A stretch of DNA of 64,000 nt from Acidobacteriota bacterium (GTDB lineage: Bacteria > Acidobacteriota > Polarisedimenticolia > SMYD01): NCBI GenBank assembly GCA_046757405.1, contig JBHHYE010000008.1, positions 1,944 to 65,943 on the forward strand, written 5' to 3'. Position numbers and translations under genes: made by a program. The notes under the pieces were generated by a model. That model was not told the DNA's origin and searched no databases. It was given only the letters and a program-made list of their open reading frames with translations. How positions within the stretch are numbered: the stretch's first letter is position 1; the number at the start of each line of letters is the position of its first letter. Positions 5,863 through 50,369 of this stretch are shown here, in pieces.

Positions 5863-7677
5863 TTGCGAGCACTCGTCTCGTTCTTGGTGGCGCTGGGCGC
5901 TGCCTCCGCCCTGACGCCGCTGGTCATGGTGATGGCGCGCCGGAATGGGCTGGTCTCCCGTCCCCAGCCGGACCGCTGGCATTCCCGGGCGACGCCCCTC
6001 CTGGGAGGGGTGGCCATCTTTCTCTCCTTCATCTTCACGGCCGTCTTTCTGACTCCCTTCCATTCTCCTTCCCTTCGCCTGGGGTTCGCGGGAGTGCTCA
6101 TCGGCTCCACCGTCATGTTCTTCCTCGGGTTGCTGGACGATTTCATGCACCTGGGGGCGGCCACCAAGCTCATCGGCCAGGTGGTGGCGGCCTGTATCCT
6201 GGTTTATTGCGGCGTGTATTTCGATATTCTCGGCCGGCCCTTGCTGACCATTCCCTTGACCATCTTGTGGGTGGTGGGAATCACCAATGCCTTCAACCTC
6301 CTGGACAACATGGACGGCCTGGCATCGGGGATCGCAGCCATCTGCGCGCTCACCATCTTTGCCCTCAACCAGGTGCTGGGCATCGACCCCAGCCTCGGAC
6401 TGGTGGCGCTGAGCTTCGCGGGAGCCCTCCTGGGATTCCTGATCTTCAATTTTAACCCAGCCCGTATCTTCATGGGGGACAGCGGCTCGATGATGATCGG
6501 CTTCACGCTGGCCGGCCTCTCCATCGCCGGCACGTGGCATCAGGCTTCCAACGTTTTTCTCCTGCTCCTGGTCCCGGTCCTGATTCTCGGGGTGCCCATT
6601 TTCGATACGACCTTCGTCACGGTCACGCGGCACCTGCGCGGCCAGTCGATTGCCGTGGGGGGGCGGGACCACACATCCCACCGGCTCGTGGGGCTGGGGT
6701 TGAGCGAGAGACAGGCTGTCCTGATTCTCTACGGCATTTCCCTGGCGTTCGCGGTGATTGCGGTCCTGGCGTTGCGTTACAATGTCTTCATCGCCGGCAT
6801 CCTGGTGATCCTGCTGGCCACCGTCGCCCTGATCTTCGGGATGTTCCTGGGGCAATCCAGGCTCTCTCAAGAGGTGGCGCCTGCCGCGGCCGGGCCGGAG
6901 GGGAACGGGAAGGACGCCAGGCGCGGGTTCGTCCTGAACACCCTGGTGATGCACAAGCGCCGGATGGCGGAGGTCCTGATCGACCTGTGCCTGTTCGGGG
7001 TCGCCTTCGTGGCCGCCTATCTTCTGAGGTTTGAGGGCGCCATGCTTCCGCAAACAGAGCGCCTTCTTCTCTTTGCCCTGCCGATCGTCGTTCCGATCAA
7101 GCTGATCACCTTCTGGTCCTTCGGCCTCTACCGGCGGGTCTGGGATTTCATGGGGATCCACGACCTGGTGGTCATCACCAAGGCCGTCTTGACGTCCAGC
7201 CTGATCTGCATCATGGTCCTCTGGGGCCTGACCCGCCTGGAGACGTTCTCCCGCGCGGCCTTCCTGATGGACGGCATTCTTCTCCTCCTGCTCACCGCAG
7301 GGAGCCGCATCCTGTATCGTGTGTTCCAGGAGTCGTTTTTGGAGGAGTGTCCGGAAGGGAAACGGCTCCTCATCGTCGGGGCCGGGCAGGCGGGGGCGCT
7401 GGCCCTGCGCGAGATCCGCCGGAACCCGGCGCTGGGTTACCAGACGGTCGGTTTCCTGGATGATGATCCGGACAAGTGGGGCCGGAGGATCCAGGGTGCC
7501 CGCATCCTGGGAGGGCGCGACATGATCGCCAATCTCTCGTCCGAAGGGATCGACGAGATTCTGATCGCGATTCCCTCCCTTCCCCAGGACCAGCAGGCGG
7601 CCCTCGCTCAACTCTGTCGCGCCACCGGCAAGACCACGCGGATCATGCAGCGGGTCAGCAGCACCTTCCTTCATTGA
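5863..7677 (+). CDS. wecA: WecA/WbpL-family polyprenyl-phosphate HexNAc-1-phosphate transferase fused to a C-terminal TM + CoA_binding_3-like Rossmann domain
   Basis: MraY/WecA motifs NAFNLLDNMDGLASG and GDSGSMMIGF sit in the first ~350 aa. The extra ~240 aa carry TM helices then LLIVGAGQAGALALREIRRNPALGYQTVGFLDDDPDKWGRRIQGARILGG, which resembles the N-terminal NAD/CoA-binding-like domain of WbpM/CapD/WbaP-type proteins. Confidence 0.75.
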   Translation: MRALVSFLVALGAASALTPLVMVMARRNGLVSRPQPDRWHSRATPLLGGVAIFLSFIFTAVFLTPFHSPSLRLGFAGVLIGSTVMFFLGLLDDFMHLGAATKLIGQVVAACILVYCGVYFDILGRPLLTIPLTILWVVGITNAFNLLDNMDGLASGIAAICALTIFALNQVLGIDPSLGLVALSFAGALLGFLIFNFNPARIFMGDSGSMMIGFTLAGLSIAGTWHQASNVFLLLLVPVLILGVPIFDTTFVTVTRHLRGQSIAVGGRDHTSHRLVGLGLSERQAVLILYGISLAFAVIAVLALRYNVFIAGILVILLATVALIFGMFLGQSRLSQEVAPAAAGPEGNGKDARRGFVLNTLVMHKRRMAEVLIDLCLFGVAFVAAYLLRFEGAMLPQTERLLLFALPIVVPIKLITFWSFGLYRRVWDFMGIHDLVVITKAVLTSSLICIMVLWGLTRLETFSRAAFLMDGILLLLLTAGSRILYRVFQESFLEECPEGKRLLIVGAGQAGALALREIRRNPALGYQTVGFLDDDPDKWGRRIQGARILGGRDMIANLSSEGIDEILIAIPSLPQDQQAALAQLCRATGKTTRIMQRVSSTFLH

Positions 7678-41058: not shown

Positions 41059-41792
41059 CCTGGCGCGACCTCCTTGCGGCGCCCGATCGGCGGCCCGGCC
41101 GCCTCCAGCACGGGGTTCTGGCCCGGAAGGAGGCGGCCACCGGAGAGGGCCAGCAGGTTCTGGCGGACCGTTTCTGCAAACTCGCGGTCGGTCCGCCGTC
41201 CCTCTCCGGGCGGTAGATGAGATGGGCCCGGCGAGAAGAGGGTCTGGCCGAAGAGAACCTCCACGGGACGGGCTCTCGGCAGGGCGCACCCCGGAGGCCA
41301 GGCATCGAATGCGCCCAGCAAGGCGATGGGAAGCACCGGGGATCCGGTGACACGGGCCAGGTGGGCGAAGCCGCGCCTGAAGGGCAGGACGCGGCCGTCA
41401 GGGCTTCGCTGCCCCTCGGGGAAAAGTTCCAGAATGTCGCCGGCGCGGAGCAGGCGGAGAACGGTCTTCACCGTTCGCACCGGAAAATCGTCTCCAACGG
41501 GCATTCCGCCGAAGTACCGGATCCCCGGGCCCAGGAGAGGATGGTCCATGTACGGGCGATAGACCAGGTAGCGCGGCCGGAGACGCAAGGCGGCGCCGAT
41601 GAGAAAGGGGTCCAGGTATGACGGGTGGTTGGCAACCAGAAGGAGAGGGCCGCTCTCGGGGACGCGCTCCAGACCGCGGTACCGAACGCGAAAAACCATG
41701 CCCGACACGGCACGAACCAGCCCGCGCAGCAGAGGGTAGGCAAGGCGTGAGCGGGCAGCACGGGATCTGGAATACGGATGGCCCAAGGGCAT
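41055..41792 (-). CDS. plsC: 1-acyl-sn-glycerol-3-phosphate acyltransferase (PlsC/LPLAT family)
   Basis: Acyltransferase motifs I NHPSYLDP (HX4D), III FPEGQRS and IV VLPIALLG. Confidence 0.8.
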   Translation of the reverse strand: MPLGHPYSRSRAARSRLAYPLLRGLVRAVSGMVFRVRYRGLERVPESGPLLLVANHPSYLDPFLIGAALRLRPRYLVYRPYMDHPLLGPGIRYFGGMPVGDDFPVRTVKTVLRLLRAGDILELFPEGQRSPDGRVLPFRRGFAHLARVTGSPVLPIALLGAFDAWPPGCALPRARPVEVLFGQTLFSPGPSHLPPGEGRRTDREFAETVRQNLLALSGGRLLPGQNPVLEAAGPPIGRRKEVAPG

Positions 41793-41959
41793 GAGTCTCC
41801 AAACGCCTCCCCCCTCCGAAAGCAAGCGTAAGCGGGCCCCGGTTGCCTTGTCAACGGAACATGCCGGGGAACATGCCGGGCCTGCGAGATTGATTCGCCC
41901 CGAGAGGACGTGTTAGGCTTCGTCGCCCGCCGGTCACGCCGGGGCCGAAGGGCGGGTCT

Positions 41960-42460
<501 letters not shown>

Positions 42461-42495
42461 ACATCGACCCGGCGATCCATGCGGATGGGCTCGGC

Positions 42496-43893
42496 ATGTT
42501 CAAGAAGATCCTAATTGCCAATCGCGGAGAAATTGCCCTGCGGGTCATCTGGGCCTGCCGGGAACTGGGCATCAAGACCGTCGCCGTGCATTCGGAGGCC
42601 GACAATGATTCGCTGCATGTCAAGTTCGCCGATGATGACGTGTGCATTGGGCCGGCACGCGCGTCGGAGTCGTATCTGAACGTGAGCGCGCTCATCGCCG
42701 CGGCCGAGATCACGGGCGCCGACGCGATTCACCCTGGCTACGGCTTTCTGGCGGAATCCGCCCATTTCGCCGAGGTGTGCGACGCTTGCAATCTGACGTT
42801 CATCGGTCCCAGCCCGAAAGTGATGTGGTTGATGGGGGACAAGGCCCGGGCGCGGGAAACCATGGCTCGCGCCGGAGTCGTCTGTGTTCCCGGCTCCGGG
42901 ATCATCGAGCGCGAGGCCGAGGCCGAGGCAGCCGCCGAGCGGTTCGGGTTTCCGTTGCTGATCAAGGCGGCGGCGGGCGGCGGCGGGAAAGGGATGCGGG
43001 TGGTGGGCAGCCGCGAGGAGCTGCTCCACCGCCTTCCCCAGGTCAGGAACGAAGCCGGACAGGCCTTTGGCTCCGACGCGGTCTACCTGGAGAAGTATCT
43101 GGATCGCCCGCGCCACGTGGAGTTCCAGATCTTCGGCGACGGGACGGGGCGCGTGGTCCACCTGGGCGAGCGGGAATGTTCCATCCAGAGACGCCACCAG
43201 AAGCTCATCGAGGAGTCGCCGTCGCCGGCGCTGGACGACGTCCTCCGGCGGAAGATGGCAACCGCAGCCGTCAAGGCGGCGCGGACCGTTCACTATACCA
43301 ATGCGGGTACGGTGGAGTTTCTCTTGGATGAAAACCGAGATTTTTTCTTCATCGAGATGAATACGCGTATCCAGGTGGAGCATCCGGTGACGGAGGGGGT
43401 CACGGGGACCGACCTGGTGAAGGAGCAGATCCAGGTGGCCAGTGGCGAACCGCTGTCATTCCGGCAGGAGGATGTCAGCCTGCACGGACATGCCATGGAG
43501 TGCCGGATCAATGCCGAGGACCCGGAGACCTTCGTTCCCAGCCCCGGCAGGATCACGGCCTTTCACATTCCCGGGGGCCCCGGCCTGCGGGTGGACACGG
43601 CGGCCCACACCGACTGCGTGATCTCCCCTTATTACGATTCCATGATTGCCAAGGTCATCACCCGGGGCGGCAGCCGGGAGGAAGCGCTGTCGCGCATGCG
43701 GCGTGCCCTGGACTCCTTCATTGTCGAGGGCATCAAGACCAGCATGTCTCTGCAGCTCCGCATTCTTTCCGATCCCGACTTCATCGCCGGCCGGTTCGAT
43801 ATTCATTTCCTGGAGCGCTTCCTCGCCCGCTCAGGCGCCCGAGGTGGCCTTGAAGGAGGAGAGGGCGGGAAGACGTCCACCCCGGCAGTGTGA
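42496..43893 (+). CDS. accC: Acetyl-CoA carboxylase biotin carboxylase subunit
   Basis: [25 protein letters not shown]...; ATP-grasp fold throughout. Confidence 0.95.
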
Positions 43894-43917
43894 ACCGCCC
43901 ACGGGTGGGGAGGCGAG

Positions 43918-45369
43918 GTGGCAAGAAGACGTGAGGAGTTCAGCAGCCGGTGGGGCCTGATCCTCGCCTCCCTGGGAATGGCCGTGGGGACGGGAAATAT
44001 CTGGCGCTTCCCTCGGGTCGTGGCGGAGAACGGCGGTGGATCCTTTCTTCTTCCCTGGCTCCTGGCCCTTTTCTTCTGGTCGATTCCTCTCCTCATGGTG
44101 GAGTTCGCCATCGGGAAGACGACCCGGAAGGGAACCATCGGGGCGTTCGCCCGGCTGCTGGGGAAGCGGTTCGCGTGGATGGGAGGTTTCGTCGGCGTTT
44201 GTACCCTGGCCATTCTCTTTTACTACTCGGTGGTGACGGGCTGGTGCCTGCGTTACTTCTTGTCAGCGGCCCTGGGCCGCCTGAGTGGAGACACGGAGTC
44301 TTTCTGGACCTCCTTCGCCGACGCCGGGGGATGGGAGCCCGTGCTGTTCCATGGCCTGGCGCTGGGGCTGGGCCTGATCATCATCGACCGGGGAGTGGTC
44401 AGGGGCATCGAGAGGGCGAACCGGGTGCTGATCCCGGCTCTCTTCCTCTTGCTCGGCGTGGCAGCGTTCCGTGCCGTGACGCTGGAGGGCGCGGCCCGCG
44501 GGCTGGAGTTCTTGTTCCGCCCCGAGCTCCACCGCCTCGCCGACCACCGGATCTGGCTGGCGGCTCTCTCCCAGTCGGCATGGTCCACGGGAGCGGGGTG
44601 GGGGCTGATCCTGACCTATGCGTGCTACATGCGCCGGGACGAGGACATCCCGCTGAATTCCCTGGTGGCGGGGCTGGGAAACAATTCGGCCTCCCTCCTG
44701 GCGGCCATGGCCATCCTCCCCACGGTCTTTGCGTTTCTCTCCACCCAGGAGGCCCTCTCGGTCATGAAATCGGGCAACAACGGGCTGGCTTTCATCTGGA
44801 TTCCCCGCCTCTTCGCCCGGATCCCCGCCGGAGGCGTCTTCGTGACCGTGTTCTTTCTGGCCCTGAGCGTGGCGGCTCTCTCTTCCCTCATCGCCATGCT
44901 CGAGCTGGGCGTCCGACTGTTCATGGACGCGGGGTTGAGCCGCCGGCGGGGGATCGTCGTGGTGGGATCGACCGCGTTCCTGCTGGGAATTCCCTCGGCC
45001 CTGTGGATGTCCGTGTTCGAGAATCAGGACTGGGTTTGGAGCGTCGGCCTGATCGTGTCGGGCGCCTTCGTGGCGTTCGCGGCGTTGCGCTACGGCGTGG
45101 ATCGCTTCCGGCAAGAGTGTATCAACGGTTTGGGCTCCGACCTGCGGGTCGGCAAGTGGTTCAATATTCTGCTGGTCGCGGTGATTCCCCTGGAATTCGG
45201 AGCAATGCTAGCCTGGTGGTTCTTTCTTTCGGTGACCGACTTCGATCGAACAGGATGGTGGAACCCATTTCATGTCAGTTCTGTGGGAACCTGCCTCTTG
45301 CAGTGGGGAGTGGTTCTCTCCTTGCTGGGGCTGTTCAACGCCCGGCTGGCGCGCTGGAGCCATTCATGA
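43918..45369 (+). CDS. Sodium-dependent transporter, NSS (SNF) family, copy 1
   Basis: NSS signature WGLILASLGMAVGTGNIWRFP...GGGSFLLPW and 11-12 TM segments. Confidence 0.85.
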   Translation: MARRREEFSSRWGLILASLGMAVGTGNIWRFPRVVAENGGGSFLLPWLLALFFWSIPLLMVEFAIGKTTRKGTIGAFARLLGKRFAWMGGFVGVCTLAILFYYSVVTGWCLRYFLSAALGRLSGDTESFWTSFADAGGWEPVLFHGLALGLGLIIIDRGVVRGIERANRVLIPALFLLLGVAAFRAVTLEGAARGLEFLFRPELHRLADHRIWLAALSQSAWSTGAGWGLILTYACYMRRDEDIPLNSLVAGLGNNSASLLAAMAILPTVFAFLSTQEALSVMKSGNNGLAFIWIPRLFARIPAGGVFVTVFFLALSVAALSSLIAMLELGVRLFMDAGLSRRRGIVVVGSTAFLLGIPSALWMSVFENQDWVWSVGLIVSGAFVAFAALRYGVDRFRQECINGLGSDLRVGKWFNILLVAVIPLEFGAMLAWWFFLSVTDFDRTGWWNPFHVSSVGTCLLQWGVVLSLLGLFNARLARWSHS

Positions 45370-45530
45370 GTCGTTCCGCCTGGATCGCCATGGGGACCAT
45401 CCTGGTCCTGGTGTGGGGGGGGTTCGCGGCCGCCGTGGGGCTGGCGATTTCGTACGAACGGAGAAAACATGAAAACCGCGCCCCGCGGACCTGTCCTCCC
45501 GGGCCGCCCGTTCCAGGGAAAGGGAGCTGA
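45366..45530 (+). CDS. Small single-TM protein between the NSS transporters (candidate MetS-like small subunit)
   Basis: 54 aa: MSRSAWIAMGTILVLVWGGFAAAVGLAISYERRKHEN.... Its ATG overlaps the stop of NSS copy 1 (ATGA) and its TGA overlaps the ATG of copy 2 (TGATG). Confidence 0.45.
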   Translation: MSRSAWIAMGTILVLVWGGFAAAVGLAISYERRKHENRAPRTCPPGPPVPGKGS

Positions 45531-46939
45531 TGGTGGAACGAGACGGGTCGGCTGCGGGACGAGGCGAATGGCGTAACCGCGCGGGTTTTGTGCTCGCGGC
45601 CGCCGGTTCCGCGATTGGCCTGGGGAACATCTGGCGTTTTCCTTCCGAGACCGCGCGCAACGGCGGGGCGGCTTTTCTGGTGGTTTATCTGGCCTGCGTG
45701 GCCTTGGTTGGCGTGCCGGTGATGCTTGCCGAGCTATCCATCGGCCGCCGCACGCGGCGGAATCCCGTCGGAGCCTTCATGATGCTGCGGCCGCGCACGG
45801 CCTGGCCGCTCCTGGGAGGACTTGGAGTCTTGACCGGGATTGCCATCCTTTCGTTCTATTCGGTGGTGGCCGGGTGGACGATCGGCTATCTGCTCAAGGC
45901 GGTCCGCGGGGATTTTTCCACGGTGGAGAAGGCTTCCCATGCCGAGAGCTTCTTCCGCCAGGCCGTGGGCAACGGGCACTGGAACCTTCTGCTCCACGGT
46001 CTGTTTCTCGCCTTGACGGTTTTCATCGTGGTCGGGGGGATCAAGAAGGGGATCGAGCTTGCCTCCCGGATCATGATGCCTGTGTTGCTGGTCCTGCTTC
46101 TGGGCCTGGTGTTTTTTTCCATCAGCCTGGAGGGCTCCGGGTCGGGCCTGTCGTTCTACCTGAAGCCGCACTGGAGCGATATCACGCCACAGGTCGTCGT
46201 CGCGGCAATGGGGCAGGCCTTCTTTTCTCTTTCCCTGGGAATGGGAGCCATGATCACCTACGGCTCGTACCTGAACCGGAAGGAGAACCTGCTCTCCTCC
46301 GCTTGTCTCGTGGCGGGGATGGACACTCTCATCGCTTTCCTGGCCGGGCTGGCCATCTTCCCCGCCTTCGCGGCGGCGGGAGCCAACCTGGAAGGTCTCG
46401 AGGGGGGAGCGGGCCTGATTTTTGTCGTGCTGCCCACGATCTTCTCCTCCATTCCGTTCCAGCCAATCGGCGGCATTCTGTTCGGCGGCGCCTTTTTTCT
46501 CCTGCTTTCCCTGGCTGCCCTCACCTCCACCATCTCGCTCCTGGAGGTGGGAGTTTCCTGGGCGGTGGACGAGTTGCGCTGGACCCGGCTCAAGGCGTCG
46601 ATTCTCCTGGGCCTGGCCGCCTTCATGCTGGGGATCCCATCGGCCTTCGCCAATGGCGGAAGCCGGTTGTTCAGCGGAAAGCACTGGCTGGGCATGAATT
46701 TCATGGATGCCATGGCCATGATCTTTATCACGTACAGCCTCACGGTGGGCGCCTGGTTGATCTGCATCTTTGCCGGCTGGGTCTGGGGGACCAAGGCAGC
46801 CGCCGAGGAGGTGCGGGCCGGCTGCGAGAACGTGTCCCTGGTGCGTGCGTGGACCGTCCTGGTGCGCTATCTCTGTCCCCTTGCCATCGCCATCATCCTG
46901 GCGGTGATCTATTTCCGGCCCGGTGTCATCCCCACCTGA
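45530..46939 (+). CDS. Sodium-dependent transporter, NSS (SNF) family, copy 2
   Basis: NSS signature FVLAAAGSAIGLGNIWRFP...GGAAFLVVY; polytopic. Confidence 0.85.
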   Translation: MVERDGSAAGRGEWRNRAGFVLAAAGSAIGLGNIWRFPSETARNGGAAFLVVYLACVALVGVPVMLAELSIGRRTRRNPVGAFMMLRPRTAWPLLGGLGVLTGIAILSFYSVVAGWTIGYLLKAVRGDFSTVEKASHAESFFRQAVGNGHWNLLLHGLFLALTVFIVVGGIKKGIELASRIMMPVLLVLLLGLVFFSISLEGSGSGLSFYLKPHWSDITPQVVVAAMGQAFFSLSLGMGAMITYGSYLNRKENLLSSACLVAGMDTLIAFLAGLAIFPAFAAAGANLEGLEGGAGLIFVVLPTIFSSIPFQPIGGILFGGAFFLLLSLAALTSTISLLEVGVSWAVDELRWTRLKASILLGLAAFMLGIPSAFANGGSRLFSGKHWLGMNFMDAMAMIFITYSLTVGAWLICIFAGWVWGTKAAAEEVRAGCENVSLVRAWTVLVRYLCPLAIAIILAVIYFRPGVIPT

Positions 46940-47447
46940 TGGCCCCGTCTGGCTGATTGGCTTTCCGGGGGCCGGAAAGACCACCGTGGGCCGGCTGCTG
47001 GCTCGCTTGCTCGAGCGTCCCTTCGTCGACCTCGATACCCTCATCGAGGAGCAGGCGGGCTGTAGCATCGCACTCCTCTTTTCCCGGGAGGGCGAAGAGC
47101 AGTTCCGTCGGCACGAGATGCGGGCGGTGGCCGGCATCGTCCAGGGGAAAGGCCCGTCTCCGGTGGTGGCGTGCGGCGGCGGCCTGGTGAGCCGCAAGGC
47201 CAACCGGGAGCGGCTGGCGGCTTCCGGTCCCGTGTTCTGGCTGGATGTTCCGTGGGAAGAGGCGGCCCGGCGTTGCGCCCTCCAGGCCTCCCCCAGACCG
47301 TTGCTCGGCGACCCGGCCGCATTCCGCCGGCGTCTCCCGCGGCGCCTGTTCCACTACCGCGCCCTGGGGAGGCGGGTCGATGCGCGCCTGCCTCCCGGGG
47401 AGATTGCCGGACGGATCATGGAACTGCTCCAGCATCCTGGCGATTGA
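46923..47447 (+). CDS. aroK: Shikimate kinase
   Basis: P-loop LIGFPGAGKTTVGRLLA and the shikimate-binding region. GTG start overlaps the end of NSS copy 2. Confidence 0.8.
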   Translation: MSSPPDGPVWLIGFPGAGKTTVGRLLARLLERPFVDLDTLIEEQAGCSIALLFSREGEEQFRRHEMRAVAGIVQGKGPSPVVACGGGLVSRKANRERLAASGPVFWLDVPWEEAARRCALQASPRPLLGDPAAFRRRLPRRLFHYRALGRRVDARLPPGEIAGRIMELLQHPGD

Positions 47448-47555
47448 GACCGTCTCTGTCTCTTCATGGGACAGAGGGGCACCTGCACTGTCCTCTTCCG
47501 GGTCAGGGGAATCGACGCCCGCTCCGCCGCACGGGATACTGAGGAACGGACTCGC

Positions 47556-47571
47556 CTGGCATCCGGTTTGC
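47556..47571 (+). promoter_or_regulatory. Sigma54 (-24/-12) promoter candidate upstream of minor-pilin operon
   Basis: cTGGCATccggtTTGCt matches the TGGCAC-N5-TTGCW consensus with GG and GC correctly spaced. Confidence 0.5.
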
Positions 47572-47587
47572 TCACCCTCCGGCCGGC

Positions 47588-48109
47588 ATGCAAAGGATCT
47601 CGAAACCGCGGACGGGCCGCTGGAGTCCCCCCGGGAGGGTCTTCTCCGGCCGGTTCCCGGCAAGACGCCGCCTGGGCGGGCCCCGCGGTCCTGGCCGGGT
47701 GGCGCCCACGGGGCAGAGGGGCTTCACGCTTCTGGAGACCTTGGTGGCCATGGTTGTTCTCAGCCTGGCCCTCATGTCGGCAGCTCGGCTCACGGTCGAG
47801 GCCGCACAGATCGTGGAGCGTGCGGTTCGGGGCACCGAGGCGCTGGCCCTTGCGTCCTCGGTGAGCGAGGTGCTGCAGGCGGCCCCGGCAGACGCTCCCT
47901 GGGTCGCTCCGGGAGGGGCGCTCGACCGGCCGGTCTCCTCCTCGGATGGCAAGTGGTTCCTGGATGCCGGCCGGTTTCAGGTCCGCTGGCGCGTCGAGAG
48001 CGCCGGGCCCTCCCTGCGACGCATTCATCTCGCCGTGGTGGACCGGTCCGCCAGCCGGGCCGCCGCGTCCATGGTCATCGAGAGTGTGCTTCTCAGGTCT
48101 TCCCGGTGA
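47588..48109 (+). CDS. Prepilin-type N-terminal cleavage/methylation domain protein (minor pilin/pseudopilin 1)
   Basis: GQRG|FTLLETLVAMVVLSLAL carries the class III signal motif with E at +5. ATG 47588 gives an unusually long 45-aa leader; the in-frame GTG 47699 (VAPTGQRG|F...) would give a typical 8-aa leader. Confidence 0.65.
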   Translation: MQRISKPRTGRWSPPGRVFSGRFPARRRLGGPRGPGRVAPTGQRGFTLLETLVAMVVLSLALMSAARLTVEAAQIVERAVRGTEALALASSVSEVLQAAPADAPWVAPGGALDRPVSSSDGKWFLDAGRFQVRWRVESAGPSLRRIHLAVVDRSASRAAASMVIESVLLRSSR

Positions 48110-48960
48110 AGCCGGACAGAACGAGACAGGCCCAGTCCGGCTCGGTGCTCCTGGAGTCCCTGGTCTCCCTCGCCCTGGGGCTGATCGTGATCGCCGTGGC
48201 CTTGCCTTTGCTCCTCTGGTCGCGCTGTGCGGCAGCCGACACGGCGGATCGCGCCGCGCGGGCCGATGGCGCGCGGCTGTCCGTGCTGCGATTGATCCGC
48301 GAATCGCGACGGGCCGGGTTCGGACTGGCGGGCGAGATGGAGGCCTTCAGGGTCGCGGAGACCGGTGACCGGGTCTCCTTGGTTTTTCTCGAAGGGGGTT
48401 TCCGTGGCGGCCTTCCCGTGTTGGAGCCCGCCCCCTCCGGGGCCCGCTCGATCGTCCTGGGCGCCCTGGGGACGCTCCGCGCCGGGGACGAGGTGGCCCT
48501 GCGGGATCGGGAGGGGCGCTTCGCCTCCGGGAGGATCGAGAGATTGACCCGGGATCCGCTCACGGTGGTTCTGGCGGCGGGTCTTCCTTTTCCGGTGTCG
48601 CCCGAGAGTGGCGCGCGCCTTTATCGCGTGTGCCGGAGGGAATGGCTTCTGGCAGGCGGCGTCTTGCGAAGGGATGGACAGCCCATCCTGGATCCTCCCG
48701 TCGGTTTCTCCCTCACCGCCGGGGCCGGCGCCCCGGACGAGGCCTTATCCTGGGTGGTCGCCAGGGGGCTTGCCGGTTCGCCGGGAAGTGTGGCCGGGCC
48801 GCTCCTGATGGCACAGCTGACGGTGGGGAGCGGCCGCCCAGGCCAAGCGGCTCCAGGATCTCCGTGCGCCGGCCATGCGCTCCGGGAAGTCCGCCTTCCG
48901 GTGGTGGTCCAGCCCCAGCATGGCTGGCCGGAGAATCTCGCTGCGAGTCCGTTGCCATGA
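48106..48960 (+). CDS. Prepilin-type minor pilin 2 (PilW-like)
   Basis: GTG start overlaps the upstream stop (GTGA). QSG|SVLLESLVSLALGLIVIAVAL has E at +5. Confidence 0.6.
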   Translation: MKPDRTRQAQSGSVLLESLVSLALGLIVIAVALPLLLWSRCAAADTADRAARADGARLSVLRLIRESRRAGFGLAGEMEAFRVAETGDRVSLVFLEGGFRGGLPVLEPAPSGARSIVLGALGTLRAGDEVALRDREGRFASGRIERLTRDPLTVVLAAGLPFPVSPESGARLYRVCRREWLLAGGVLRRDGQPILDPPVGFSLTAGAGAPDEALSWVVARGLAGSPGSVAGPLLMAQLTVGSGRPGQAAPGSPCAGHALREVRLPVVVQPQHGWPENLAASPLP

Positions 48961-50369
48961 AACCGCCGGGTGCCGCGGGTGGAGCGCTTCCGGCGGCCCT
49001 GGTCCTGCTCCTGGTCTTGACCCTGGTGGCGACGCATCTGTCGTTGATGGCGCTGACCGCCCGGCTCGGCGTTGCCCGCGCCGCGGCCGGGGACCAGAGC
49101 TACCGGATCGCGGAGGGGCTGATCCTCCTGGCGGCCACCAAGAACGCGGGGGCGCTGGCCGCTTCCCTTGCGGATGGCACGCCTCTTGGCCTGGACATGG
49201 GGGTTCTGGGTCAACCGAGGTCCGCCGGGTCGGTCCGGGTCATGGATGACCTGGATGGTGACGGGGATCCGGCCGTGGACGCCAACGGAAGACTCTTCCT
49301 GACAGCGGAAGGCCGGTTTCCAGTGGGCGGGGTGATCCGCGCCAGCCGCCGGGTTCTGAGCCAGGAGGCCCTGGTGGGCGGGTTGACTCCCTTGCCGGCC
49401 GCCATCGTGGACTGCCAGGGCCTCGCGGCGATGTGCGGGGGGACGGCCGGGTGCCCGGTCCCGGCTTCCCGCGTGGACGGCGGCTCACGGCCCGCCCTGG
49501 CGGCGACCGCCACCGGGCAAGACCGCCTCCGGCAGCGCCTGTTCCTCCTCTATCGGGAGATCCTCCGCGCCGCCGATCTCAGGTGCGGCACCGGGTCGTC
49601 AGCCTGCACCCCAGACGATGAGGACCTGAGGCGGGCCGCCAGCACCGACGTGCTCCGGGCGATGGAGGATCCGTCCGCAGATGCGCTGGGCCTTGACTCC
49701 CTGGAAATGAGCCGGCTCATTTCCAACCTCTTGATGCTGTCCGGGGATGAATCGGGAGCCGGCACCGCCGTCTGGTTCGACGGATCGGCGCGGCCGGTCA
49801 CCGATCGAGCTTTGCTGGTGGCTGCCACGGAGAATCTCGGCCGGCCGGCGGGGCATGTCCCCGATCTGGCCGGGCATCCCGTGACCCTCCTTCTGGAGGC
49901 GGGCAAACCGCTGGGTTCCGATGGCGGGCTCTGCCGCCGTCTCGCGGCCCTGTTGCCGGCCGCCATGGTCCGCGCCATGGAGATCCCGGCCGCGGCCATC
50001 GGCCCGGCTCCGGGGCCGCCTCCCGCGAGAGGCACCTTCGTTCTGAGCCGCGACCTCCGCCTGGAGCCGGGCCAGGCCCTGGCTGGAGAAGGGCTCCTGG
50101 TGGTGGAGGCCACCCTGCGGATCGATACGGGCGCGGAAATCCACTGGTCGGGCGCTCTCGTGCTCGCCGGCGGGCGCATCCAGGGCCCCGGAATCGTGCA
50201 GGTGGAAGGCGGTGTCCTGGACAGCGGCCGGCGGGCGGATGGCTCCCCGGGGCTCGACCTGTCGGCAAGCCAGTGGCAGGTGCAGGCCGACCCGGCGCGA
50301 AACGCGGCCGCCTGGGCTCCGGCCGGAACGGTTCTCCTGTCGTCGTGGGAGGAGGTGCCGGGAGAATGA
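48957..50369 (+). CDS. PilX-like minor pilin with large C-terminal domain
   Basis: ATG overlaps the upstream stop (ATGA). N-terminal hydrophobic helix MKPPGAAGGALPAALVLLLVLTLVATHLSLMAL; a ~420-aa soluble domain follows. Confidence 0.55.
   Translation: MKPPGAAGGALPAALVLLLVLTLVATHLSLMALTARLGVARAAAGDQSYRIAEGLILLAATKNAGALAASLADGTPLGLDMGVLGQPRSAGSVRVMDDLDGDGDPAVDANGRLFLTAEGRFPVGGVIRASRRVLSQEALVGGLTPLPAAIVDCQGLAAMCGGTAGCPVPASRVDGGSRPALAATATGQDRLRQRLFLLYREILRAADLRCGTGSSACTPDDEDLRRAASTDVLRAMEDPSADALGLDSLEMSRLISNLLMLSGDESGAGTAVWFDGSARPVTDRALLVAATENLGRPAGHVPDLAGHPVTLLLEAGKPLGSDGGLCRRLAALLPAAMVRAMEIPAAAIGPAPGPPPARGTFVLSRDLRLEPGQALAGEGLLVVEATLRIDTGAEIHWSGALVLAGGRIQGPGIVQVEGGVLDSGRRADGSPGLDLSASQWQVQADPARNAAAWAPAGTVLLSSWEEVPGE

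Follow-up and report, generated by a model that had tools for sequence, protein, structure and literature searches.

A divergent MetS-like open reading frame between two NSS transporter genes of an Acidobacteriota bacterium as a probable small subunit gene

Small partner proteins and solved relatives of NSS transporters

The founding member of the MetS family is reportedly MetS of the MetPS methionine/alanine importer of Corynebacterium glutamicum. To our knowledge, such small subunits have barely been studied since MetPS in 2008, and we know of no solved structure of a complex between an NSS transporter and a small subunit. We are likewise aware of no small subunit of LeuT; MhsT has reportedly been studied and crystallized without any partner, and no requirement for one is known to us. 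Collectrin and ACE2 are one-helix partners of B0AT1/SLC6A19 and are needed for the expression or function of this transporter. MhsT has only 11 TMs (PMC11459141). According to an excerpt from a work citing Trotschel et al. 2008 (doi 10.1021/bi801206t), MetS forms part of a transporter with two subunits; a review of methionine transporters does not mention MetP.

Here, we compare these systems with a locus in a 64-kb stretch of Acidobacteriota DNA (hereafter, the window), in which an open reading frame (ORF) of 54 aa lies between two NSS genes, NSS1 and NSS2. The peptide shares with the MetS family (NF033493; PF16951, MaAIMP_sms) a length of ~30-60 aa, one TM helix with WGG(F/L) in its middle and a basic C-terminal side, and its gene, as is the rule in that family, adjoins an NSS (PF00209) gene, here on the 3' side of NSS1, to which such genes are usually translationally coupled. 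It differs from the family in being divergent and under the cutoff, in its Pro/Gly-rich tail of 17 residues, and in that its gene is directly succeeded by a second NSS gene. NSS1 aligns with LeuT of Aquifex aeolicus (PDB 2a65), a 12-helix NSS protein, and has a C-terminal helix corresponding to TM12; unlike LeuT, it belongs to a clade with an apparently dedicated small subunit. NSS2 matches MhsT of Bacillus halodurans (PDB 4us3), an 11-helix transporter of hydrophobic amino acids, from end to end and stops after TM11, whereas its start, unlike that of MhsT, is translationally coupled to a MetS-like gene. The pairing of collectrin or ACE2 with SLC6 transporters also joins a one-helix membrane protein to a LeuT-fold transporter, but this likeness is an analogy only: those partners are unrelated in sequence, are much larger, have ectodomains and show no operon coupling. 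We consider it probable that the product of the 54-aa ORF is a small subunit of the 12-helix NSS1 and a divergent member of the MetS family, and that the MhsT-like NSS2 is a co-expressed neighbor working without a partner.

Gene order, junctions and transporter architecture

The three same-strand genes (+) follow one another as NSS1 (43918-45369; GTG start, 483 aa), the 54-aa ORF MSRSAWIAMGTILVLVWGGFAAAVGLAISYERRKHENRAPRTCPPGPPVPGKGS (45366-45530; ATG start) and NSS2 (45530-46939; ATG start, 469 aa). At the first junction, ATGA, the small-ORF ATG (45366-45368) and the NSS1 stop TGA (45367-45369) form a 4-nt overlap; at the second, TGATG, the small-ORF stop TGA (45528-45530) runs into the NSS2 ATG (45530-45532). 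By reading, SD-like GGAG/GGAGG sites lie 5' of all three starts, as GGGGAGG at 43907-43913 for NSS1, GGAG at 45356-45359 with a spacing of 6 nt for the small ORF, and GGGAG at 45522-45526 for NSS2. An initial, sequence-only reading of this DNA had described tandem NSS genes bracketing an overlapping single-TM ORF of 54 aa, a description confirmed by the ORF coordinates, both junctions, the Pfam SNF matches and hydropathy. The same reading took the overlaps to imply translational coupling and, with ATGA and TGATG present as described, we agree that the three genes are translationally coupled.

Upstream on the same strand lie accB (41960-42460; Pfam Biotin_lipoyl) and accC (42496-43893; Pfam CPSase_L_D2, Biotin_carb_N and Biotin_carb_C), and because only 24 nt separate the end of accC from the start of NSS1, accBC and the NSS1 cassette probably form one transcription unit. 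Downstream, also on the + strand, is aroK, encoding shikimate kinase (46923-47447; Pfam SKI, E=6.2e-37), the longest ORF of which begins with GTG at 46923 and overlaps the 3' end of NSS2; the gene-caller start lies at ~46986 (called genes of the window's own contig, L001). A promoter/terminator scan found no promoter-like sites in 41500-48500, and its terminator-like matches fell mostly within coding sequence and were taken as chance. NSS1, the peptide gene and NSS2 are probably co-transcribed, and accBC and aroK are likely to be in the same transcript. An Rfam scan of the window at 40-50 kb and of 13 related loci returned tRNAs only, with no riboswitch or regulatory RNA hinting at a substrate.

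Both transporters match Pfam SNF (PF00209) over their full length (NSS1, E=3.5e-60; NSS2, E=2e-58) and carry the TM1 motif GxGNxWRFP in their translations, as GTGNIWRFP and GLGNIWRFP, respectively; they are 36% identical to each other, and NSS1 also matches NCBIfam Na_transp. Their top PDB matches are LeuT and MhsT. The alignment of NSS1 with LeuT covers LeuT residues 3-471 (E about 6e-45), and another 45 residues of NSS1 contain a 12th hydrophobic helix at 455-473. Residues 9-457 of NSS2 align to residues 9-446 of the 455 of MhsT (E=5.9e-101), and the final hydrophobic helix of NSS2, at 442-460 of 469, is followed by nine residues and no TM12. Judged by these alignments and by hydropathy, NSS1 is a 12-helix LeuT-like Na+ symporter and NSS2 an 11-helix MhsT-like one.

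The small ORF, its family and its association with NSS1

The conserved core of the peptide, residues 1-37 (45366-45476, + strand), contains one TM helix with W17-G18-G19-F20 followed by the basic stretch ERRKHE, and hydropathy gives a single peak at residues 10-28, as expected of a single TM helix. The Pro/Gly-rich tail NRAPRTCPPGPPVPGKGS, which together with the stop codon occupies 45477-45530 on the + strand and reaches the NSS2 start at TGATG, is lineage-specific: the peptide of the closest relative, L002, is 38 aa long and lacks it, as does the family consensus.

This G+C-rich stretch is full of mechanical ORFs (56 of at least 30 aa in 6 kb), so that size alone is at chance level, and the ORF might be a spurious, untranslated chance frame between real genes. 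As a single query against a set of 5.8 billion proteins, moreover, the peptide retrieved only itself; this is no sign of non-conservation, because the 5-residue word index of that search is too coarse for a short divergent protein. What lifts the small ORF above chance expectation is its conservation in synteny, which holds at the amino-acid level across phyla of very different base composition. A profile of 60 syntenic small ORFs, taken from other genomes only and leaving out the window peptide, matches the peptide in frame 45366-45476 with E=1.4e-10, and this frame is its sole match when the 64-kb window is searched in six frames (1,233 segments; next best, E=0.39). The SD-like site 6 nt upstream of the start and the match to a curated family also argue against a chance frame. 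Cross-phylum conservation, the family matches of the orthologs and the unique profile match effectively refute the spurious-ORF reading, to which we give almost no chance of being right. Gene callers already have the small ORF, as NCBI ACE5HD_03715, a 'hypothetical protein' of an Acidobacteriota MAG.

Counting against a MetS-family small subunit, the window peptide alone stays under the curated cutoffs: it matches NF033493 (MetS_like_NSS) significantly over profile positions 1-28 of 30 but with E=1.2e-3 and 18.5 bits (NCBIfam cutoff, 25) and PF16951 with E=0.031 and 14.5 bits (Pfam cutoff, 26.2). Among the 61 syntenic small ORFs, however, 58 match NF033493 (E<=0.01; best, 1.8e-12) and 39 match PF16951, and NCBI names the database relatives 'MetS family NSS transporter small subunit'. 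These ortholog matches, together with the profile that leaves out the peptide itself, uphold the earlier suggestion of a MetPS-type single-helix partner. On sequence grounds, the 54-codon ORF is a genuine gene and a divergent, unannotated member of the MetS family (NF033493). The peptide is far from the MetS equivalog level (NF033494; 13.5 bits, cutoff 70), and a methionine/alanine substrate therefore cannot be assumed for this system.

NSS1 has orthologs (48-77% identity) in 80 related genomes that belong to several phyla, and in 61 of these the ortholog is accompanied by a one-helix ORF of 31-57 aa with (V/I)WGGF in mid-helix; the taxa include Acidobacteriota, Ignavibacteria/Bacteroidota, KSB1, Gemmatimonadota, Aminicenantes and Deferribacteres. 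Conservation in synteny had been proposed as a check on the peptide, its lack to be held against it; the small ORF, retained after the NSS1 ortholog in these 61 genomes, is strongly conserved. When the window's own contig is counted with the 80 genomes, the small ORF lies directly 3' of the NSS1 stop in 59 of 81 loci, with a start/stop overlap of 4-11 nt (e.g., ATGA) in 29 of the 59, and is displaced by 0.5-0.75 kb in two loci only (L057 and L066). Across 815 kb read in six frames, there are 50 copies of the strict motif at the 3' end of NSS1 and two elsewhere, both inside long ORFs. Most NSS1-peptide pairs have no second NSS gene nearby (~45 loci without NSS2).

No small ORF was found within ~5 kb of the NSS1 orthologs of Vicinamibacterales (12 loci) and Marinacidobacterales (4 loci); this absence in two Acidobacteriota clades weighs against our main reading and means that NSS1 may do without the peptide or that the peptide gene may lie elsewhere. 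The absence would suit a modulator better than a structural subunit, that is, a peptide that tunes the activity, stability or membrane insertion of NSS1 or acts as a switch, with transport possible without it; the modulation of transporters by small membrane proteins is well known among bacteria (review PMC12648545). However, the two genes are coupled very tightly and in many genomes, their start and stop codons overlapping in 29 of the 59 loci, which suggests that the proteins assemble together at a fixed ratio, and the founder MetS, in the excerpt mentioned above, is a subunit of a two-subunit transporter. A purely modulatory peptide is thus very unlikely in our estimation, and a small subunit of NSS1 remains our preferred reading.

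NSS2, the proposed mechanism and the meaning of the locus

The sequence-only reading considered a peptide between paralogous NSS genes unusual and suggested that it could be a shared accessory subunit. The arrangement is less unusual than supposed: the order NSS1-peptide-NSS2, in which the peptide stop adjoins or overlaps the start of NSS2, recurs in four other loci of Acidobacteriota type (L002, L029, L042 and L055), across which the peptide-NSS2 junction is conserved in neither sequence nor length. Of the 81 loci, only 15 have an NSS2-like gene; nine of these genes lie upstream, five lie downstream and one is on the other strand, and none of the 15 is followed by a dedicated small subunit of its own. 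In the two upstream loci that were read, L020 and L021, a thiE-like gene, so called by eye from a translation resembling thiamine-phosphate synthase, lies between NSS2 and NSS1. The NSS2-like gene of L058 has an internal stop, and its sequence was excluded from the NSS2 alignment. In a tree built by neighbor joining only, NSS2 copies beside NSS1 intermingle with solo copies.

As a shared subunit, the peptide would serve NSS1 and NSS2 alike, adding, for instance, a 13th helix to the former and, in trans, a 12th to the latter, and the locus would be one functional module. All five sandwich loci show translational coupling between the peptide and NSS2, NSS2 is without TM12, and the N-out/C-in orientation predicted for the peptide from its charges equals that of TM12 in 12-helix NSS proteins, which is what suggests an in-trans TM12 role for NSS2. 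The NSS1-peptide pair has NSS2-like neighbors in differing arrangements, a hint of a functional link, and we keep sharing as a rival explanation because the peptide gene is nearby in all 15 loci where both paralogs are neighbors. However, when 80 metagenome loci with NSS2-like genes (38-51% identity) were examined, none had an NSS1 neighbor, and a small hydrophobic ORF lay downstream of these solo genes in 0 of 63 evaluable loci, some contigs of this set having short flanks. The peptide family, conversely, follows the 12-helix NSS1 in the ~45 loci without NSS2; the intervening thiE-like gene and the variable NSS2 junction also speak against sharing, and MhsT, the closest solved relative of NSS2, is said to have been characterized and crystallized partner-free. 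The suggestion of a shared accessory subunit therefore finds no backing in the distribution of the peptide, which tracks NSS1 with or without NSS2. We regard sharing as unlikely, and a MetS-like helix genuinely shared as both NSS1 partner and in-trans 12th helix of NSS2 as quite unlikely. That NSS2 lies near the NSS1-peptide pair again and again in Acidobacteriota is explained by our main reading only as far as co-expression, and we count it against that reading.

For the preferred reading, a small subunit of NSS1, we infer from sequence the physical association of peptide and transporter, the requirement for the peptide, the stoichiometry, the topology and the substrates. A ribosome terminating NSS1 at TGA would reinitiate at the overlapping ATG, and this ATGA coupling would cause the peptide and NSS1 to be made close in time and place. 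The peptide, as a single TM helix with WGGF in mid-membrane and a basic C-terminal side, would take the N-out/C-in orientation expected from its charge distribution under the positive-inside rule and would pack on NSS1, so that the transporter has 12+1 helices. If MetPS of Corynebacterium glutamicum is taken as the analogous system, the peptide may be required for a small solute, probably an amino acid, to be taken up with Na+ in a stable or active manner. The tail, which is not conserved, would bring the ribosome to TGATG for a restart on NSS2, which would be an MhsT-like 11-helix amino-acid symporter working without a partner and not a second client of the peptide.

The sandwich between paralogs is mostly operon packing, and the finding is largely ordinary. 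The name 'hypothetical protein' can give way to MetS-family NSS small subunit, a change of modest practical value. If the helix were shared after all, the overlapping cassette of the five Acidobacteriota-type loci would be a two-transporter, one-subunit module. More generally, one 12-helix NSS clade, spread over many environmental phyla, appears to have a dedicated gene for a WGGF one-helix partner, and the two Acidobacteriota clades without a nearby copy offer a natural with/without comparison for the role of small subunits in LeuT-fold transporters.

The three-gene cassette

The + strand carries three genes arranged head to tail: the transporter gene NSS1 (43918-45369; GTG start, 483 aa), a small ORF (45366-45530; ATG start, 54 aa, with one hydrophobic helix at residues 10-28) and a second transporter gene, NSS2 (45530-46939; ATG start, 469 aa). 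The two transporters share 36% identity, and both belong to the NSS/SNF family (PF00209; E 3.5e-60 for NSS1 and 2e-58 for NSS2). The overlaps described in the sequence-only reading were confirmed in the window sequence; the NSS1 stop and the small-ORF ATG overlap as ATGA (45366-45369), and the small-ORF TGA and the NSS2 ATG overlap as TGATG (45528-45532). A Shine-Dalgarno-like GGAG-type site is positioned 3-6 nt 5' of all three starts, and a promoter/terminator scan detected neither promoter-like sites nor convincing terminators between the cassette genes. Directly upstream of NSS1, accB (biotin carboxyl carrier protein) and accC (biotin carboxylase) occupy 41960-43893, and only 24 nt separate the end of accC from the NSS1 start. 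The cassette would be co-transcribed, probably together with accB/accC upstream and aroK downstream. A shikimate-kinase-like ORF follows NSS2 in the closest relative (locus L002), and thus at least the downstream neighbour is common to this lineage. Beyond aroK, the product of 47588-48109 bears an N-terminal methylation motif of the prepilin type (PF07963, E=7.8e-8), and the next two ORFs (284 and 470 aa; 48106-50369) lack significant Pfam matches; this region, 47588-50369, is possibly a cluster of pseudopilin or type IV pilus-like genes.

A MetS-family gene behind NSS1

Because the window is G+C-rich and crowded with mechanical ORFs, the small ORF by itself proves nothing. It is also predicted by gene callers (ACE5HD_03715, "hypothetical protein", Acidobacteriota MAG). 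Against NF033493 (MetS_like_NSS), the peptide alone gave a significant E-value (1.2e-3), though its score of 18.5 bits is weak and below the curated cutoff of 25; the match to PF16951 was likewise weak and sub-threshold (E=0.031), and a word-indexed protein search recovered solely the peptide itself. We therefore fetched loci with NSS1 orthologs and inspected the DNA 3' of their stops. The sample comprised 80 genome loci with orthologs of 48-77% identity, from Acidobacteriota, Ignavibacteria/Bacteroidota, KSB1, Gemmatimonadota, Aminicenantes, Deferribacteres and others.

Including the window's own contig, 59 of 81 loci carry a one-helix ORF of 31-57 aa whose start lies no more than a few bases from the NSS1 stop, and in two more (L057, about 6960-7022; L066, about 7222-7290) a MetS-like ORF is displaced to 0.5-0.75 kb beyond that stop; the conservation in synteny that the sequence-only reading had proposed as a check is therefore present. 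The small-ORF start overlaps the NSS1 stop in 29 of the 59 loci, 20 times as a 4-nt ATGA/GTGA overlap. The small ORFs have in common the pattern M-x7-M-x4-G-x-(V/I)-W-G-G-F-x3-L-x2-A-x-K-x-E-x2-K, and in the six-frame translation of 815 kb the strict motif was found at the NSS1 3' position 50 times and elsewhere twice, on both occasions within long ORFs. Matches to NF033493 were obtained for 58 of the 61 syntenic peptides (best E 1.8e-12) and to PF16951 for 39 of the 61, and a profile search of a large protein set returned relatives named "MetS family NSS transporter small subunit" by NCBI. A profile from which the window peptide had been left out matched a single frame, 45366-45476, when run against the 1,233 six-frame segments of the window (E=1.4e-10; next best 0.39). 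The syntenic conservation, the family matches and this unique profile match effectively refute the reading of the small ORF as spurious, which we rejected as extremely improbable; judged from sequence, the ORF is a genuine and conserved gene, and it belongs to the MetS family as a divergent member. In size, topology, adjacency and transitive homology it agrees with the MetS family NSS small subunits, and it is a previously unannotated member of this known family.

The peptide scores 13.5 bits against the 70 of the MetS equivalog model and, by this measure, is not a MetS equivalog. Given this distance, a methionine/alanine substrate cannot be assumed; Rfam scans of window positions 40-50 kb and of 13 related loci found no riboswitch as a substrate hint. 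The final 17 residues of the peptide (NRAPRTCPPGPPVPGKGS) show no conservation, and the small subunit of the closest relative ends at 38 aa.

Seven loci (L038, L043, L044, L045, L060, L064 and L079; two Aminicenantes MAGs, the rest labelled uncultured Eubacteriales) encode short 31-aa small subunits, still MetS family by NCBI naming, that start 11 nt within the NSS1 gene (offset -10) and have (C/I)-(L/I)-G-G-F in place of VWGGF. In L026 (about 6467-6530), only a 20-aa remnant without the W of WGGF (MMELGAIRLMIISGGVKGFI) follows the NSS1 stop and may be a decayed small-subunit gene.

The probable partner transporter

The distribution of the peptide follows that of NSS1. An NSS2-like gene is present in only 15 of the 81 NSS1 loci: downstream in five (L001, the window's contig, and L002, L029, L042 and L055), upstream in nine, which form one NSS1 clade, and on the opposite strand in one. 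No separate small hydrophobic ORF follows the NSS2-like gene in any of these 15. A comparison set of 80 metagenome loci was assembled with NSS2-like genes of 38-51% identity, the range of the NSS1-neighbouring copies; none of the 80 has an NSS1 ortholog nearby, and none of the 63 evaluable loci has a hydrophobic small ORF after the NSS2-like stop. In a neighbour-joining tree, NSS1-adjacent NSS2 copies are intermingled with solo copies.

In the two upstream arrangements that were read, a gene of roughly 210 aa lies between the NSS2-like gene and NSS1 (L020, 4321-4992; L021, 3402-4037), and by eye its translation resembles thiamine-phosphate synthase (ThiE); L065, L077 and L058 show a gap of comparable size. 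The L058 NSS2-like gene (904-2250) contains an internal stop, and the NSS2-like regions of L028, L032, L042 and L046 match in fragments only; these five cases could reflect pseudogenes, frameshifts or assembly errors.

The order NSS1-peptide-NSS2 is a minor variant, seen again in four other genomes. In all five such loci the NSS2 start adjoins or overlaps the peptide stop, but not in a uniform way: the overlap is 1 nt in the window and about 8 to 25 nt in L029, L042 and L055, and L002 has a 1-nt gap. Such varied junctions are in keeping with compaction of the operon and not with a functional junction under conservation.

NSS1 is a LeuT-like 12-helix NSS transporter: its alignment covers LeuT residues 3-471, and its 45 further residues hold a 12th helix (455-473). 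The conserved pair therefore consists of a 12-helix transporter and one additional helix. NSS2 and MhsT (PDB 4us3) align over their full lengths (E=5.9e-101; NSS2 9-457 with MhsT 9-446 of 455), and NSS2 ends nine residues beyond its 11th helix; MhsT has "only 11 TMs" (PMC11459141). NSS2 belongs to the MhsT-like 11-helix subclass. MhsT itself was reportedly characterised and crystallised without a partner.

The missing TM12 of NSS2, the predicted peptide orientation, which equals that of TM12, and the bringing together of the two paralogs in more than one arrangement would suit a subunit shared by NSS1 and NSS2, but the peptide accompanies NSS1 in many loci without NSS2, and the evaluable NSS2-type genes elsewhere lack it. 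We consider a shared subunit unlikely, and quite unlikely the reading in which one helix serves both transporters and completes NSS2 in trans. The sequence-only interpretation is partly supported: it was right in proposing a MetPS-type partner, and its suggestion of sharing is unsupported.

Proposed role of the small subunit

We propose that termination-reinitiation at ATGA couples peptide synthesis to NSS1 synthesis, and that the helix inserts N-out/C-in, as predicted by the positive-inside rule from the ERRKHENR...R...K stretch C-terminal to the helix. Its small-residue WGGF face would pack against NSS1, and, by analogy with MetPS, the peptide would be required for a stable or active transporter; the non-conserved tail would just bring ribosomes to the NSS2 start.

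Within about 5 kb of the NSS1 orthologs, no MetS-like ORF was found in 12 Vicinamibacterales loci (L012, L015, L019, L024, L025, L030, L031, L033, L041, L071, L072 and L081) and four Marinacidobacterales loci (L039 and L047-L049). This favours a modulator rather than a subunit, a reading that we regard as very unlikely; the small subunit could have been lost or relocated in these clades. By eye, the gene next downstream of NSS1 in the Vicinamibacterales loci resembles bacilliredoxin (VYPEFMIAPMREELTRFGV...). The two clades offer a natural comparison of NSS1 transporters with and without a nearby MetS-like gene.
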